Below are positions 1 to 3,354 of a stretch of 5,206 nt of DNA, one piece after another. The position numbers were made by a program, and so were the translations under genes. The notes under the pieces are model-generated. The model had not been told where the DNA came from and searched no databases. It saw nothing but the letters and a program-made list of their open reading frames with translations. Position 1 is the stretch's first letter. The number at the start of each line of letters is the position of its first letter. This DNA comes from a virus (Duplodnaviria > Heunggongvirae > Uroviricota > Caudoviricetes), in IMG/VR virus record IMGVR_UViG_2740892423_000010, positions 1 to 5,206 of that record. One strand, given 5' to 3'.

Positions 1-87
1 CTCACTGAAGCTGAGAGCTTCTTCGCCTTCGGCAAGGCCTTCGAAGTATTCTTCGTAAGCCTTTTCCATGATTGTGTCGAAATCCAT
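1..87 (-). CDS. Partial small acidic hypothetical protein (start at 87, runs off left edge of window); translation begins MDFDTIMEKAYEEYFEGLAEGEEALSFSE
   Basis: Open frame on minus strand from ATG at 87..85 through position 1 with no stop. The ATG lies 1 nt after the upstream gene's TGA (TGATATG), suggesting coupled translation. Position matches a ydfB-like gene after ydfA in Qin-type prophages, but identity is not confirmed. Confidence 0.4.
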   Translation of the reverse strand, partial: MDFDTIMEKAYEEYFEGLAEGEEALSFSE

Positions 88-88
88 A

Positions 89-244
89 TCACTCGCCTGA
101 ATTTCTTTCCAGCCAGCGACGAGCGCCAGTTTCGGTTTTAAACGTTTTGCTTTTGGTATACGTCATCGCGGTGAATGTGCCGTCCTGGTTGGGAAACACG
201 CCGTATACCAGAGATTCGTTGTTGCCAAGATCGATAGTATCCAT
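89..244 (-). CDS. ydfA: Small phage protein, YdfA-like (51 aa: MDTIDLGNNESLVYGVFPNQDGTFTAMTYTKSKTFKTETGARRWLERNSGE)
   Basis: Minus-strand ORF ending with TGA at 91..89. I prefer the internal ATG at 244 because it is preceded by a GAGG Shine-Dalgarno about 5 nt upstream and gives a 51-aa product that matches my recollection of E. coli Qin-prophage YdfA. The ORF track's longer version starts at 322 (77 aa). Confidence 0.55.
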   Translation of the reverse strand: MDTIDLGNNESLVYGVFPNQDGTFTAMTYTKSKTFKTETGARRWLERNSGE

Positions 245-420
245 GTTGACCTCATTTCCCCTTAACGCCGGGGGAGCGGAACAAAAACCTGCTGCATAGT
301 TAAAGTTGAACCCTGCCGTCATGTTCTTACGCCTCGGGCTGGCTACTTATCCCCTGACCACTGCCTGGTAACTCGAGGTATTGCCCTGCGTTCTGTGGGG
401 CGGGGTGGGTTGGTGGAAAT

Positions 421-464
421 AATCTACAATTAAAAACTGTTTTGTGTCAACAGTTTTTAATTGT
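421..464 (-). promoter_or_regulatory. Operator-overlapping promoter for the ydfA-like operon: palindrome ACAATTAAAAACTGT-N9-ACAGTTTTTAATTGT (426..464) with minus-strand -35 TTGACA (450..445) and -10 TAGATT (426..421)
   Basis: Perfect 15-bp inverted repeat with 9-bp spacer read directly from sequence. On the minus strand the spacer contains a consensus TTGACA, followed 18 nt later by TAGATT. Near-identical to the palindrome at 1462..1500. Confidence 0.55.
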
Positions 465-473
465 TGGGCTGGG

Positions 474-501
474 TAAAAAAAACTCCCTCGAATGAGGGAG
501 T
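474..501 (-). terminator. Rho-independent terminator ending the repressor-antitoxin-toxin operon
   Basis: On the minus strand: GC-rich hairpin ACTCCCTC-ATTC-GAGGGAGT (501..482) followed by a run of 8 T (plus-strand A-run 475..482), placed 17 nt after the toxin stop at 518. Confidence 0.6.
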
Positions 502-517
502 ATGAAAATTGTTCAGT

Positions 518-805
518 TCAGATAGGGAAGGGAAATTGTCGGCGGGCATGCACAATATTTGCAATTTCAATGCTTGAAGCTGCTACTCGGTACAAAACGA
601 TATAATTAGGGTGAACCACAATTTCCCGCAAACCGGATACTCGATCACTTGGCGGATATAGATATGGATGCTCGGAGAGGGCTAAAACAGACGTTTCAAT
701 ACGTATTTTTAGTCTGCGTGCTGCAGGAATATTTTCCTTAGCAATATAGGCTACGATCTGACGCAAATCATCGCGAGCAGATGGTAGCCATAAAATGGGT
801 AACAT
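518..805 (-). CDS. parE: ParE/RelE-family type II toxin (95 aa)
   Basis: Translation has the ParE-like pattern (N-terminal DL..I..YI helix region, C-terminal YRV...I.I..I.HARR). Its ATG overlaps the upstream antitoxin stop by 1 nt (TAATG on minus strand), typical of toxin-antitoxin coupling. Confidence 0.88.
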   Translation of the reverse strand: MLPILWLPSARDDLRQIVAYIAKENIPAARRLKIRIETSVLALSEHPYLYPPSDRVSGLREIVVHPNYIVLYRVAASSIEIANIVHARRQFPFPI

Positions 806-996
806 TACTCGCTCCTGTTAGTTACAGCAATTTGAGCAATAAGATTTTCTATTTCAGCCATTACCTCGTCATGTGGAATTGAGGGACGAGGGTCTGCAAG
901 GCTTGACGCCACTTTAGCGCGCAACCATTCGTTGTAACTGTTTTCTTGTTCGGTAGTTTCGAATTCTGAAACTATCGGAGAAAGGGCTGTACTCAT
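805..996 (-). CDS. paaA: Small antitoxin, PaaA-like (ParE-associated antitoxin), 63 aa
   Basis: 63-aa ORF directly upstream of and overlapping the toxin start. Strong RBS (GAGGAG, about 7 nt spacing). N-terminal half (ALSP.VSEFET.EQENSYNEWLRAKVA.SLADPRP.IPHDEV) matches my recollection of PaaA2 from E. coli O157:H7; family assignment is not search-verified. Confidence 0.8.
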   Translation of the reverse strand: MSTALSPIVSEFETTEQENSYNEWLRAKVASSLADPRPSIPHDEVMAEIENLIAQIAVTNRSE

Positions 997-1023: not shown

Positions 1024-1425
1024 TCATGCCCGGCGGCTTTTTTGTGCCGCCAACCACCGGGCAATGGTTTCTTCCATTGATTTTTTCTTGTCTTTGATTT
1101 CTTGAAGCATTTTTTCTTGGTCTTCCTCTGGAAACGCACTAAAAGCCTGGAGCAGTTCGCGTTGGCGAGGGCCAATTTTCATCGTGTCAGGGGTGAAAAT
1201 TTGCTCCCCCTCTTCAGGAGGCAATAAAAACCAATGCAATGGATGCCCTGTAACCTCAACCAGTTTATCCAAACTTGAGGCTTTAGGTGTAGCCTTACCG
1301 CTGACCCATTGTTGAACAGTTTGTTGTGTCACACCAATTCTACGGGCCAGCTCAGCCTGGCTCCATCCAGTTTCCTGAAGAAGCTTGCTGATTCTGTACA
1401 TAGATACTTCTAGAGCGTTCATCAT
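1024..1425 (-). CDS. paaR: HTH XRE-family phage repressor, DicA/PaaR-type (CI analogue), 133 aa
   Basis: Helix-turn-helix motif (WSQAELARRIGVTQQTVQQWVSG) plus a C-terminal segment (ELLQAFSAFPEEDQEKMLQEI) resembling DicA-type repressors. Divergent from a Cro-like gene and co-oriented with the antitoxin/toxin. No SD before the ATG at 1425, but a TAAAAT -10 sits 6 nt upstream, suggesting a leaderless mRNA. Alternative in-frame start at 1401 (MYRISK...). Confidence 0.85.
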   Translation of the reverse strand: MMNALEVSMYRISKLLQETGWSQAELARRIGVTQQTVQQWVSGKATPKASSLDKLVEVTGHPLHWFLLPPEEGEQIFTPDTMKIGPRQRELLQAFSAFPEEDQEKMLQEIKDKKKSMEETIARWLAAQKSRRA

Positions 1426-1534
1426 TATTCAATTTTACAGGTAAATACTGTTAAAAGCATCACAATAAAAAACTGTTGATCGCGTACAGTTTTTTATTGT
1501 AGGCTTTGCCTGTAGTTTTTTAGAGGAGGGCAAA
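1426..1534. promoter_or_regulatory. Divergent immunity control region: operator palindrome ACAATAAAAAACTGT-N9-ACAGTTTTTTATTGT (1462..1500), candidate plus-strand promoter for the Cro-like gene (-35 TTGATC 1476..1481, -10 TAGGCT 1500..1505), candidate minus-strand repressor promoter (-10 TAAAAT = plus 1432..1437)
   Basis: Perfect 15-bp inverted repeat with 9-bp spacer read from sequence. Promoter hexamers are by-eye matches to sigma70 consensus. The plus-strand promoter and operator have the same geometry as the 421..464 unit. Strong RBS AGAGGAGGG (1522..1530) before the ATG at 1535. Possible degenerate half-site TGTAGTTTTTTAG at 1511..1523. Confidence 0.6.
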
Positions 1535-1807
1535 ATGCTAGATAGCACTCGCGAAAAAATTAGGCAGAAATACACTCAAGCTGAAATAGGTCGTTATATG
1601 GGGGTCGCTCAACAGACTGTTTGGCAATGGTTTAGCTTTGGTGTTCCCCCAAAGCAGGTAATTCCGTTATGTCAGCTAATGAAGTGGGAAGTTACCCCGC
1701 ATGAAATTCGCCCTGATATTTATCCTAACCCAACCGACGGGCTGCCTTGTGGAAATAAGTGTATGGCGAATGAATCTCTGGCGGTGAACAATGAAAATCA
1801 CCCCTGA
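1535..1807 (+). CDS. ydaS: Cro-like HTH regulator, YdaS family (90 aa)
   Basis: Strong RBS. HTH motif (AEIGRYMGVAQQTVWQW) followed by a VTPHEIRPDIYPNPTDG segment that I recognise as characteristic of YdaS-type Cro analogues. Divergent from the repressor gene. Confidence 0.85.
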   Translation: MLDSTREKIRQKYTQAEIGRYMGVAQQTVWQWFSFGVPPKQVIPLCQLMKWEVTPHEIRPDIYPNPTDGLPCGNKCMANESLAVNNENHP

Positions 1808-2342
1808 ACAGGTTCGTGAGGCTCTGGATGCCTGGGTATGCCGACCAGGAATGACACAGGAGCAGGCGACGATATTAATCACGGAAGCATTCTGGGCTCT
1901 GAAAAAACGCCCGAACATTGATGTTCAACGCGTCACGTTTGATGATGGCGCGGTTGATCAACGGGCGCTGGGCGTTAACCGGGTGAAGATATTCGAACGC
2001 TGGAAAGCTATCGACACCAGGGATAAGCGTGAAAAATTCACGGCGCTGATTCCGGCAATTATGGAGGCTATCCGGATCAGCGATTTCAGGTTGTATTGTG
2101 AAATTACTGACGGAAAAAGCATTACGTACATGATCGCCGGGTTAAACAAAGAATATGGCGATGTGGTGGAGTCCGGGCTGCTTTTTGCGGATCCAGCTGT
2201 TGTGGAACGTGAGACTGACGAGCTTATAGAAAAAGCTATTGCTTTCAAGCACGCGTATCGTCAGCAATACCAATATTACTTTGCAGATAAACAAATATCT
2301 GTCTGGGGTTCGTATGAGTATCGATGCACTACGATGGGCTAA
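1791..2342 (+). CDS. ydaT: YdaT-like protein (CII-analogue candidate), 183 aa
   Basis: ATG at 1791 overlaps the ydaS-like 3' end by 17 nt (coupled translation). Position immediately after a YdaS-type Cro matches the ydaS-ydaT pair of Rac/CP-933-type prophages. Family assignment rests on position and recalled similarity, not a search. Confidence 0.7.
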   Translation: MKITPEQVREALDAWVCRPGMTQEQATILITEAFWALKKRPNIDVQRVTFDDGAVDQRALGVNRVKIFERWKAIDTRDKREKFTALIPAIMEAIRISDFRLYCEITDGKSITYMIAGLNKEYGDVVESGLLFADPAVVERETDELIEKAIAFKHAYRQQYQYYFADKQISVWGSYEYRCTTMG

Positions 2343-3354
2343 AAAGGTGAAAACCGGCAGTTCATCCAGTAAGTCAGTATTGACCTGGCTTGCTGATATG
2401 TGCGGTGCCGATTTGTGTGCATACCCGTCTGTATCTGCCCTGGCAGAAGTAACGGAACTGAACAAAAAGACTGTGCAGGACAGCTTACGACACCTGATGG
2501 AGATTGGGTTAATTGTTGATACCGGTGAGAGAAAAGGCAGAACAAAGCAAATTGTGGTGTACCGACTTATCGGTGTAGAAGAAAGTGTTGCCGAGCCTGA
2601 ATACACCCAAAAACGGGAGTCTTTAAAGGTGGGTAAAATTGGTGCTGTTAATAAAAACAGTACCGAAAACGGTTATGTTTCAGCACAAAACAGACCCAAA
2701 AACGGAACTCTTAACTGCATGGAAAATAACCAAAGACACCCAAATTTTCCATTAAAGACACCCAAAAACGGATCACGGAACCCAAAGGAACCCAAAGATC
2801 TAAACCCCACACATAACGCACGCGAGAGTGCTCCGACCAGTGAGCAGGAAGTTTTGTCGTTACAGGCAGTGCCACCCGTATTCCTGGATGGCCTGAGCGA
2901 ACCCATCGGAAAATTTCCGATGACCGATAGCTGGCATCCGTCACGGGATTTTCGACGACGGGCTGCGTTGTGGGGGATGGCTTTGTCGGAGCCGGAATTT
3001 ACACCTGCTGAACTTGCCGCATTCCGGGATTACTGGAGCGATGAGGGCAAAGTGTTCACGCAGGTTCAGTGGGAGCAGAAATTCGCCCGTCACGTAAATC
3101 ACGTCAGGGCGCAGGTTAAACCAGTCAGCAAGGGGGTAAACCATGCAGCAGCACCAGGTGGCACCGCATCACGGGCAGTTCAGGAAATTCGGGCAGCACG
3201 TGAGCAGTGGGAACGTGAAAACGGATTTATCAGCGACGGAAACGGCGTGGAAGCTGTGGGAACTCATGGGGGAGGTTTATTCGAACCGCTGGACCCAGAA
3301 GAACGGGGCCGCACCTTCGAAGCTCTGGATTGCACAGATTGGCGCGATGACTGA
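2314..3354 (+). CDS. Replication initiator (lambda O functional analogue): N-terminal winged-helix domain plus C-terminal DnaT-like domain, 346 aa from ATG 2314
   Basis: N-terminus (LRWAKKV...SVSALAEVTELNKKTVQDSLRHLMEIGLI) resembles replication-initiator wHTH domains. C-terminal segment GKFPMTDSWHPSRDFRRRAALWGMALSEPEFTPAELAAFRDYWSDEGKVFTQVQWEQKFAR closely resembles the C-terminal region of E. coli primosomal protein DnaT as I recall it. The ORF track starts at a TTG (2239); I prefer ATG 2314, which has a GGGG SD-like element 5 nt upstream. Confidence 0.8.
   Translation: MSIDALRWAKKVKTGSSSSKSVLTWLADMCGADLCAYPSVSALAEVTELNKKTVQDSLRHLMEIGLIVDTGERKGRTKQIVVYRLIGVEESVAEPEYTQKRESLKVGKIGAVNKNSTENGYVSAQNRPKNGTLNCMENNQRHPNFPLKTPKNGSRNPKEPKDLNPTHNARESAPTSEQEVLSLQAVPPVFLDGLSEPIGKFPMTDSWHPSRDFRRRAALWGMALSEPEFTPAELAAFRDYWSDEGKVFTQVQWEQKFARHVNHVRAQVKPVSKGVNHAAAPGGTASRAVQEIRAAREQWERENGFISDGNGVEAVGTHGGGLFEPLDPEERGRTFEALDCTDWRDD
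2603..2799. repeat. Iteron-like direct repeats (consensus about GACACCCAAAAACGG) inside the initiator gene linker; candidate origin of replication
   Basis: Direct repeats read from sequence: ACACCCAAAAACGG 2603..2616, AGACCCAAAAACGG 2692..2705, GACACCCAAA 2735..2744, GACACCCAAAAACGG 2757..2771, GGAACCCAAAG 2778..2788 and 2788..2798, with a degenerate copy ACCGAAAACGG at 2662..2672. Several start-to-start spacings are about 22 bp or multiples. They encode a low-complexity PKNG-rich linker between the two protein domains. Confidence 0.5.

Follow-up and report, generated by a model that had tools for sequence, protein, structure and literature searches.

Within the 5,206-nt stretch of viral DNA analysed here (the window), positions 421-464 carry an inverted repeat resembling the one between a repressor gene and a divergent cro-like gene, and overlap a promoter that points away from the repressor. 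This arrangement raises the question of whether one repressor controls both the Cro-side operon and a separate leftward operon, as the initial annotation had proposed by analogy with DicA and the dicB operon of the Qin prophage. The analyses described below suggest that 421-464 very probably serves a lambdoid prophage as the early-left promoter/operator (PL/OL) of its immunity region, with binding of the repressor predicted from the sequence and from analogous switches.

Anatomy of the left and right operator regions

As listed in Table 1, the block at 421-464 contains a perfect inverted repeat composed of ACAATTAAAAACTGT (426-440) and ACAGTTTTTAATTGT (450-464) separated by 9 nt, which an inverted-repeat search of the window extended to 16+16 nt with a 7-nt gap. 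The repeat at 1462-1500 was also perfect (ACAATAAAAAACTGT-N9-ACAGTTTTTTATTGT), and apart from the 9-nt spacer the two differed at a single arm position, the sixth (T431/A459 versus A1467/T1495), in agreement with the near-identical operator copy, altered at one symmetric position per arm, that had been described previously. A search with the half-site pattern allowing up to three mismatches gave five matches in the window against 0.47 expected, a number that none of 200 shuffled sequences reached. Likewise, ACA-N9-TGT was found at five sites against 1.3 expected, arranged in two groups starting at 1437/1462/1486 and at 426/450. The fifth half-site match (1437-1451, ACAGGTAAATACTGT) represents a third right-hand site that was absent from the initial annotation. 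One position in 15 distinguishes the OL sites from OR1/OR2, and OL1 and OL2 lie 24 bp apart from start to start with the -35 hexamer between them. The idea of an operator at 426-464 thus held as far as the perfect repeat and its match to OR are concerned, but the 39-bp palindrome, read at the sequence level, is a pair of adjacent 15-bp operators, OL2 and OL1, and not a single 39-bp site, with a third site present at OR.

A consensus scan identified the minus-strand TTGACA (450-445) and TAGATT (426-421), separated by 18 nt (the optimum plus one) and matching the consensus at 10 of 12 positions, as the sole sigma-70-like promoter within 1-1900. This confirmed the near-consensus promoter proposed earlier, with hexamers stronger than those at the right-hand repeat. 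The promoter, PL, is directed away from the repressor gene, having OL1 inside the -35/-10 spacer and OL2 abutting the -35. On the right-hand side, PR (plus-strand TTGATC at 1476-1481, 18 nt, and TAGGCT at 1500-1505) has the geometry of PL with weaker hexamers. A terminator that had been placed at 474-501 was recovered by a terminator scan as a minus-strand intrinsic terminator with a stem at 501-482 followed by T7 at 481-475.

A putative PRM-like promoter was also noted, of which the poor -35, ATGCTT (1460-1455), abuts OR2 as in the lambda PRM arrangement, and which is conserved in the Salmonella, Serratia and Klebsiella relatives introduced below. Because its TAAAAT -10 lies only 6 nt from the repressor ATG, the repressor mRNA is predicted to be leaderless, as has been reported for paaR2 and lambda cI (PMC8630535). 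A hairpin with a trailing TTTTT, resembling a terminator, lies within the short leader of cro (1496-1516, plus strand) and overlaps the PR -10 and OR1; its stem positions are variable among the E. coli variants, and it is probably a chance match.

Judged from its sequence features, the surroundings of the block consist of a lambdoid immunity region and an adjacent replication region; in the former, the regulator, the PaaA2 antitoxin and the ParE toxin are encoded in this order in one operon. A 13-nt repeat (AAAGACACCCAAA and variants) occurs five times at 2599-2796, inside a DnaT-domain replication-organiser gene (2314-3354); the copies resemble origin iterons placed inside an O-like gene, which is the lambda arrangement.

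Table 1. Predicted features of the immunity region, in window coordinates
Feature	Position	Strand	Remarks
ydfB-like gene, cut by window edge	1..87	-	Read from sequence; 42-aa gene in L004-L009
ydfA (DUF1391, 51 aa), first PL-operon gene	89..244	-	Pfam E 1.9e-28
PL leader (5' UTR) to ydfA start	245..414	-	Core 318-414 conserved in heteroimmune phages
PL -10, TAGATT	421..426	-	Initial T doubles as final base of OL1; no change across 8 E. coli variants; also in Salmonella L058
OL1, 15-bp ACAATTAAAAACTGT, ACA-N9-TGT	426..440	.	Same-position homologous site in L058 and L063
PL -35, TTGACA	445..450	-	Between operators; TGTCAA kept in 3/3 OL spacer variants of viral contigs
OL2, 15-bp ACAGTTTTTAATTGT	450..464	.	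Directly upstream of -35
Intrinsic terminator of repressor-antitoxin-toxin transcript	475..501	-	Stem kept in variants, with loop change
ParE-family toxin	518..805	-	Pfam ParE_toxin E 6.6e-16; 67% identical to ParE2 of CP-933P type
PaaA2-family antitoxin	805..996	-	Pfam PaaA2 E 1.1e-21; 71% identical to PaaA2 (CP-933P)
Immunity repressor, 133 aa, HTH_3	1024..1425	-	Pfam; N-terminal XRE/434-type HTH joined by a linker to a helical C-terminal domain that PaaR2 also has
Putative PRM -10, TAAAAT	1432..1437	-	6 nt before repressor ATG; CTGTAAAAT conserved in relatives
OR3, weaker operator ACAGGTAAATACTGT	1437..1451	.	Overlaps PRM
OR2	1462..1476	.	ACA-N9-TGT
PR, OR1 in spacer	1476..1505	+	Read from sequence
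OR1	1486..1500	.	ACA-N9-TGT, within PR spacer
Cro-like YdaS-family regulator, 90 aa	1535..1807	+	Pfam YdaS; recognition helix resembles repressor's
YdaT (CII-like)	1791..2342	+	Pfam; followed by DnaT-like, lambda-P-like, DUF1627 and DUF977 proteins

Conservation and co-variation of the operators

The layout was compared with three relatives, oriented alike, from Salmonella (L058, repressor 82% identical), Serratia (L062, 76%) and Klebsiella (L063, 70%). The repressor-cro intergenic regions of the relatives contain three ACA-N9-TGT sites with start-to-start distances of 24 and 25 bp, and downstream of the repressor operon exactly two more sites, 24 or 23 bp apart, were found in the window, L058 and L063, so that the layout of three plus two sites at a spacing of 23-25 bp recurs in the latter two. 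In all three of these loci the left-hand region reads operator-TGT/TGACA.../ACA-operator-TGT/AG..., the -35 and the -10 each borrowing their first T from an operator end. In Serratia the sites were degenerate, and the OL pair was not found with the strict pattern. The two OL sites of L058 and L063 were not mirror copies of each other, and since the paired sites in the relatives are not inverted copies, the conserved unit is considered to be the 15-bp site. A scan for relatives of the repressor across species-representative genomes yielded four useful enterobacterial loci; the other 44 were generic HTH proteins, nearly all from metagenome-assembled genomes of Clostridia and other Firmicutes. 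The immunity stretch 330-1540 itself was found in 543 of 5426 complete genomes, and a full-text literature search with the four operator 15-mers gave no relevant paper.

Eight E. coli variants, in which the stretch 405-505 is 84-100% identical, were then aligned. Only 2 of 44 columns were variable in 421-464, versus 14 of 23 in the directly adjoining flanks (Fisher p = 7e-7) and 59 of 199 elsewhere in intergenic DNA (p = 2e-4 versus 421-464). Scanning IMG/VR with the 39-bp pattern retrieved 41 stretches, among which 29 carried two exact copies, 27 pairs being 1034-1037 bp and two pairs 683 bp apart. In the copy with T/A arms TGTCAA, corresponding to the -35 TTGACA, was always present, and the copy with A/T arms always had TTGAT followed by a freely varying tail, the arms staying constant across 12 OR spacer variants. 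The two shorter distances arose because the toxin-antitoxin genes are mostly deleted there while OL/PL, the repressor and the terminator are retained. In these two contigs (L087, 6170-6915; L096, 955-1700), most of paaA2-parE is missing and the start of the antitoxin gene is fused to the end of the toxin gene; the deletion spares the repressor, terminator, OL/PL and OR and brings OL and OR closer together, from about 1035 to 683 bp. Ten further IMG/VR contigs had altered OL copies, in which the spacing was 25 bp, one arm was changed or ACAAGT occurred, and the OL symmetry was also broken in L071 and L072. Perfect symmetry is therefore unnecessary, but ACA and TGT never change.

These comparisons bear directly on whether each 39-bp palindrome could instead be one composite operator, read by a symmetric tetramer or by a long-armed single dimer. 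Such a reading would account for OL and OR both being perfect palindromes in the window and for the T/A (OL) versus A/T (OR) difference being symmetric in both arms in 29 of 29 exact pairs from the viral contigs; moreover, PaaR2, which has the same C-terminal domain, is an octamer in solution (PMC8630535). However, the Salmonella and Klebsiella sites are not inverted copies, one of their spacings being 23 bp; the ten divergent viral contigs show 25-bp spacing, a one-sided A-type arm or single-arm substitutions, and L071/L072 are asymmetric; OR3 stands as a lone third site; and arm centres 24 bp apart are too distant for one HTH dimer, 434 sites being 14 bp (PMC2504314). A composite operator is thus improbable, although the perfect OL and OR palindromes with their symmetric substitution go beyond what a model of two independent sites requires.

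The same palindrome might be taken for an RNA hairpin that terminates or attenuates read-through from the toxin-antitoxin genes, or for a cruciform, and the terminator scan indeed listed the minus strand of 464-426 as a 16-pair stem followed by AGATTATTTC. The stem, however, has just three G-C pairs with a poor T-run, a proper terminator is located 18 bp upstream, and the same repeat stands between the divergent repressor and cro genes, overlapping promoters. The relatives keep the sites and lose the hairpin potential, and upon this loss of complementarity the hairpin or terminator reading was rejected; we consider it scarcely credible. That 421-464 is a remnant copy with no regulatory role, its promoter being dead or constitutive, would fit the fact that many such prophages are cryptic, but the strong purifying selection on 421-464 relative to its flanks, the retention of OL/PL where the toxin-antitoxin genes are deleted, and the -35 and -10 intact in every variant, together with an intact repressor, make a remnant very improbable. 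A pair of 15-bp operators embedded in a probably functional PL is therefore the favoured reading.

If the operators belong to the immunity module, they should change together with the repressor. Homology of the window to the heteroimmune prophages L002 (STEC005) and Qin of K-12 was limited to 1-282 and 1780 onward, and L002 was found to encode a DicA-like repressor without toxin-antitoxin genes. The mosaic boundaries are sharp at 283 and 1779, the right one falling in the 3'-terminal part of the cro-like gene, shortly ahead of the ydaT start. In phage Tritos and others, homology spans the leader and ends at about 427, the OL1 edge, and this stop at the edge of OL1 in heteroimmune phages indicates that the operator segment is immunity-specific. 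At the same place, L002 has a different inverted repeat with a central TTGACC, in which TGAGAAAACTCAA is common to its PL and its own OR, and Qin has TGTTAGTCATGGCTAA-type repeats at dicBp as well as at dicCp. In a 7x7 comparison of immunity types, each OR had its best 15-mer match in the PL region of its own type, although two rows were tied and the A/T-driven background was high (10-13 of 15 positions off the diagonal versus 13-15 on it). Operator specificity thus changes with the repressor across heteroimmune prophages. Taken together, the sequence comparisons and the analogous systems support the proposal that one repressor controls both the Cro-side operon and the leftward operon, its binding being predicted.

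The repressor and the leftward operon

Among proteins of solved structure, the nearest relative of the repressor was the 434 repressor (E 2e-5), and their alignment matched the three DNA-reading glutamines of the Gln-Gln-x-x-x-Gln recognition helix (TQQTVQQ versus TQQSIEQ). The Gln-Gln of a 434-type helix reads the ACA triplet in the 434 complex. An AlphaFold model of the repressor (mean pLDDT 77) comprised a five-helix HTH domain (residues 4-67) connected by a disordered linker to a C-terminal domain of two helices (86-132), and its fold matches were generic XRE/434-type domains. In BLASTP against PaaR2 (123 aa), only residues 37-133 were aligned (42% identity over 98 aa, E 2e-20), with the last ~50 residues visibly more similar and the N-terminal DNA-binding part unaligned. 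The repressor thus appears from its sequence to be a domain hybrid having a 434-like DNA-binding head on a PaaR2-like tail. Since the heads of the two repressors are unrelated, the PaaA2-ParE cassette must travel with at least two DNA-binding specificities. An identification of the repressor as PaaR2 itself was rejected once the true PaaR2 had been recovered via the published primers, only the C-terminal part being alignable; an E. coli homologue (P0077, 64% identical), at first suspected to be PaaR2, was also rejected.

Among the E. coli variants the repressor is intact, with at most three substitutions. A Pfam search of the repressor gave no match to an S24-like RecA-cleavable domain, and in view of this lack induction by RecA cleavage is unlikely; more likely routes are an antirepressor or the kind of bistable switching described for DicA and PaaR2. 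The Cro-like protein has a helix, AQQTVWQW, close to that of the repressor, and the two proteins are 42% identical over 57 aa.

The extent of the leftward operon was examined in an E. coli assembly (L004) that shares 99.94% identity with the window, where ydfA, ydfB, ydfC, a 59-aa ORF, dicB, a DUF1482 gene (ydfD), a gene for an 823-aa YdfE-type exonuclease, xis and int follow one another on the same strand. The description as a separate operon of small proteins was apt for YdfA and the YdfB-like product but too narrow, this being the whole early-left operon, which reaches the integrase. Genes like dicB and dicF had been suspected to the left of the window, and both dicB and a diverged DicF-like element were found in L004. 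The latter, located between ydfC and dicB (7159-7209, minus strand), reached 34 bits against the Rfam gathering score of 48 and shares 78% identity with K-12 dicF. The same assembly carries, at 20258-20552, a 319-aa RIP-family (Shiga-toxin-A-like) gene after a Q-type antiterminator and a methylase; the source of the window is probably a Stx-converting prophage inserted next to potC/potD.

The leader core at 318-414 (minus strand, ACCAACCCACCCCGCCCCACAGAACGCAGGGCAATACCTCGAG...GAACATGACGGCAG) is 82-97% conserved across heteroimmune phages and prophages, in which the upstream operators and the downstream sequence diverge; it is present in the CP-933P type, Salmonella, phage Tritos, ten other E. 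coli phages and an Actinobacillus phage, and its 5' end is C-rich and G-poor. The predicted fold of the PL leader was no better than that of shuffled sequences (z = +1.7), RNAalifold gave no covariation support, and neither ORF conservation nor an Rfam family was found for 318-414. At the Rfam gathering thresholds, the window and L001 gave only sok, outside the region, and a permissive Rfam scan of 200-520 returned chance-level palindrome matches only, such as one to a microRNA family. Possible roles of this element include a Rho or antitermination signal and a recombination linker. An in-frame ATG at 322 has led some gene callers (L008, L009, phage Tritos) to a 77-aa extended YdfA (89-322, minus strand); the extension shows no conservation across relatives, the DUF1391 match covers the 51-aa form only, and the longer form is probably an annotation artefact.

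Proposed switch and its relation to known immunity systems

The closest precedent is the cryptic prophage CP-933P of E. coli O157:H7, in which paaR2-paaA2-parE2 together with ydaS-ydaT constitute the immunity region (Jurenas et al. 2021, PMC8630535). There, PaaR2 and YdaS footprint the intergenic operators, and PL933P, a promoter beyond parE2 with similar operators, is repressed approximately 100-fold by either protein (PMC8630535). We located this locus (L066) via the primers published in PMC8630535 and found that the cloned PL933P fragment ends exactly at the start of the shared leader (ACCAACCCACCCCGCCCC / ACCAACCCACCCCGCCCCACAGAACGC), which in the window occurs just after the -10. Because the same leader directly follows both promoters, the PL of the window and PL933P are regarded as positional homologues. 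In both systems PL comes after the terminator of a repressor-PaaA2-ParE operon, its operators resemble those of OR and the conserved leader directly follows; repressor, antitoxin and toxin follow in this order on one side, opposite ydaS-ydaT, the C-terminal domains of the repressors are homologous, and the downstream operon includes ydfC and dicB. In contrast, the DNA-binding domain of PaaR2, which begins MQKKEIRRLRLKEW, is unrelated in sequence, the operator consensus is GTTTAGTAA there and ACA-N9-TGT in the window (the CP-933P OR sequence also differing), three OL operators are reported there versus two in the window, and the PL and PR hexamers, identical in CP-933P, differ in the window. 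The unrelated DNA-binding heads fit the different operator sequences of the two repressors. The YdaT site of CP-933P, TTGATT-N6-AATCAA, had no meaningful match in the window.

The parallel with Qin drawn by the initial annotation also applies in outline, since dicBp, the promoter upstream of ydfA-ydfB-ydfC-dicF-dicB-ydfD (PMC10448788, PMC3441716), is controlled by a short repressor with no RecA-cleavage domain and has two operator-like repeats flanking its TTGACC -35. Deletion of dicA derepresses this promoter 22-fold (PMC10448788). DicA is 28% identical to the window repressor over 111 aa (E 2e-12), which places them in the same broad family and not as orthologues. The Qin operators are of the TGTTAGTCATGGCTAA type, and TGTTAGTCATAACTAA-like Qin repeats are absent from the window; furthermore, Qin has no toxin-antitoxin genes in the repressor-promoter interval, lacks the conserved 100-nt element in its leader, and spaces its repeats by 35 bp versus 24 in the window.

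With lambda, the window shares tandem operators about 24 bp apart that overlap PL and PR, a third, weaker OR3 overlapping PRM, a leaderless repressor mRNA (predicted in the window), a terminator preceding OL, and an early-left operon that ends in xis-int. The differences are that lambda operators are 17 bp versus 15 bp and its OL sites three versus two, that an N gene or recognisable nut site is absent from the window system and an S24 peptidase domain from its repressor, and that the OL-OR distance is 2.3 kb in lambda versus 1.0 kb. The likeness to phage 434, the closest solved HTH relative, lies in the conserved Gln-Gln-x-x-x-Gln helix, in the invariant outer ACA/TGT triplets and in a Cro-like protein with the recognition helix of the repressor. 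The 434 operators, however, are 14-bp sites (PMC2504314) of the form ACAA-N6-TTGT, as in entries 1RPE and 3CRO, versus the 15-bp ACA-N9-TGT of the window, where A/G occupies the fourth and T the fifth position, and the C-terminal domain of the 434 repressor is unrelated to that of the window repressor.

By analogy with these systems, the following mechanism may be proposed. Dimers of the repressor would occupy OL1 and OL2, occluding the -35 and the spacer and so excluding RNA polymerase; lying about 2.3 helical turns apart, adjacent dimers probably cooperate via the PaaR2-like C-terminal oligomerisation tail. The operon silenced in this manner would comprise ydfA-ydfB-ydfC, the DicF-like element, dicB, ydfD, the exonuclease gene, xis and int, with PL transcription predicted to start near 414. 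The terminator at 475-501 would stop PRM transcripts encoding the repressor, PaaA2 and ParE short of PL. Like PaaR2 and YdaS, the repressor and the Cro-like protein probably share their sites, which is plausible because the recognition helix of the latter is near-identical to that of the former. Repressor bound at OL may also loop to the three OR operators 1036 bp away, a possibility suggested by the octameric state of PaaR2. A more elaborate scheme, in which the hybrid repressor, with an octamerising tail of the PaaR2 type, bridges OL and OR in a 1-kb loop around its own gene and PaaA2-ParE, a symmetric tetramer reads the palindromes, and the leader at 318-414 is a new cis-acting element (e.g., a Rho/antitermination signal) gating dicB/DicF after derepression, is rather unlikely as a whole.

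The PL/OL switch itself is of a well-known kind and adds no concept beyond the paradigm of lambda, Qin and CP-933P. Its novelty is limited to the specificity class, namely, ACA-N9-TGT operators of 15 bp, a repressor joining a 434-like head to a PaaR2-like tail, and two OL sites. Nevertheless, this type of prophage is common in E. coli, and some of its carriers have a Shiga-toxin-like RIP gene downstream. The operator grammar, ACA-N9-TGT with three OR and two OL sites, allows the prediction of immunity groups and tells which promoters fire on induction, and hence when the DicB/DicF division inhibitors and the excision functions are expressed. It also illustrates the modularity of these regions, the PaaA2-ParE cassette and the PaaR2 tail being combined here with another DNA-binding head.
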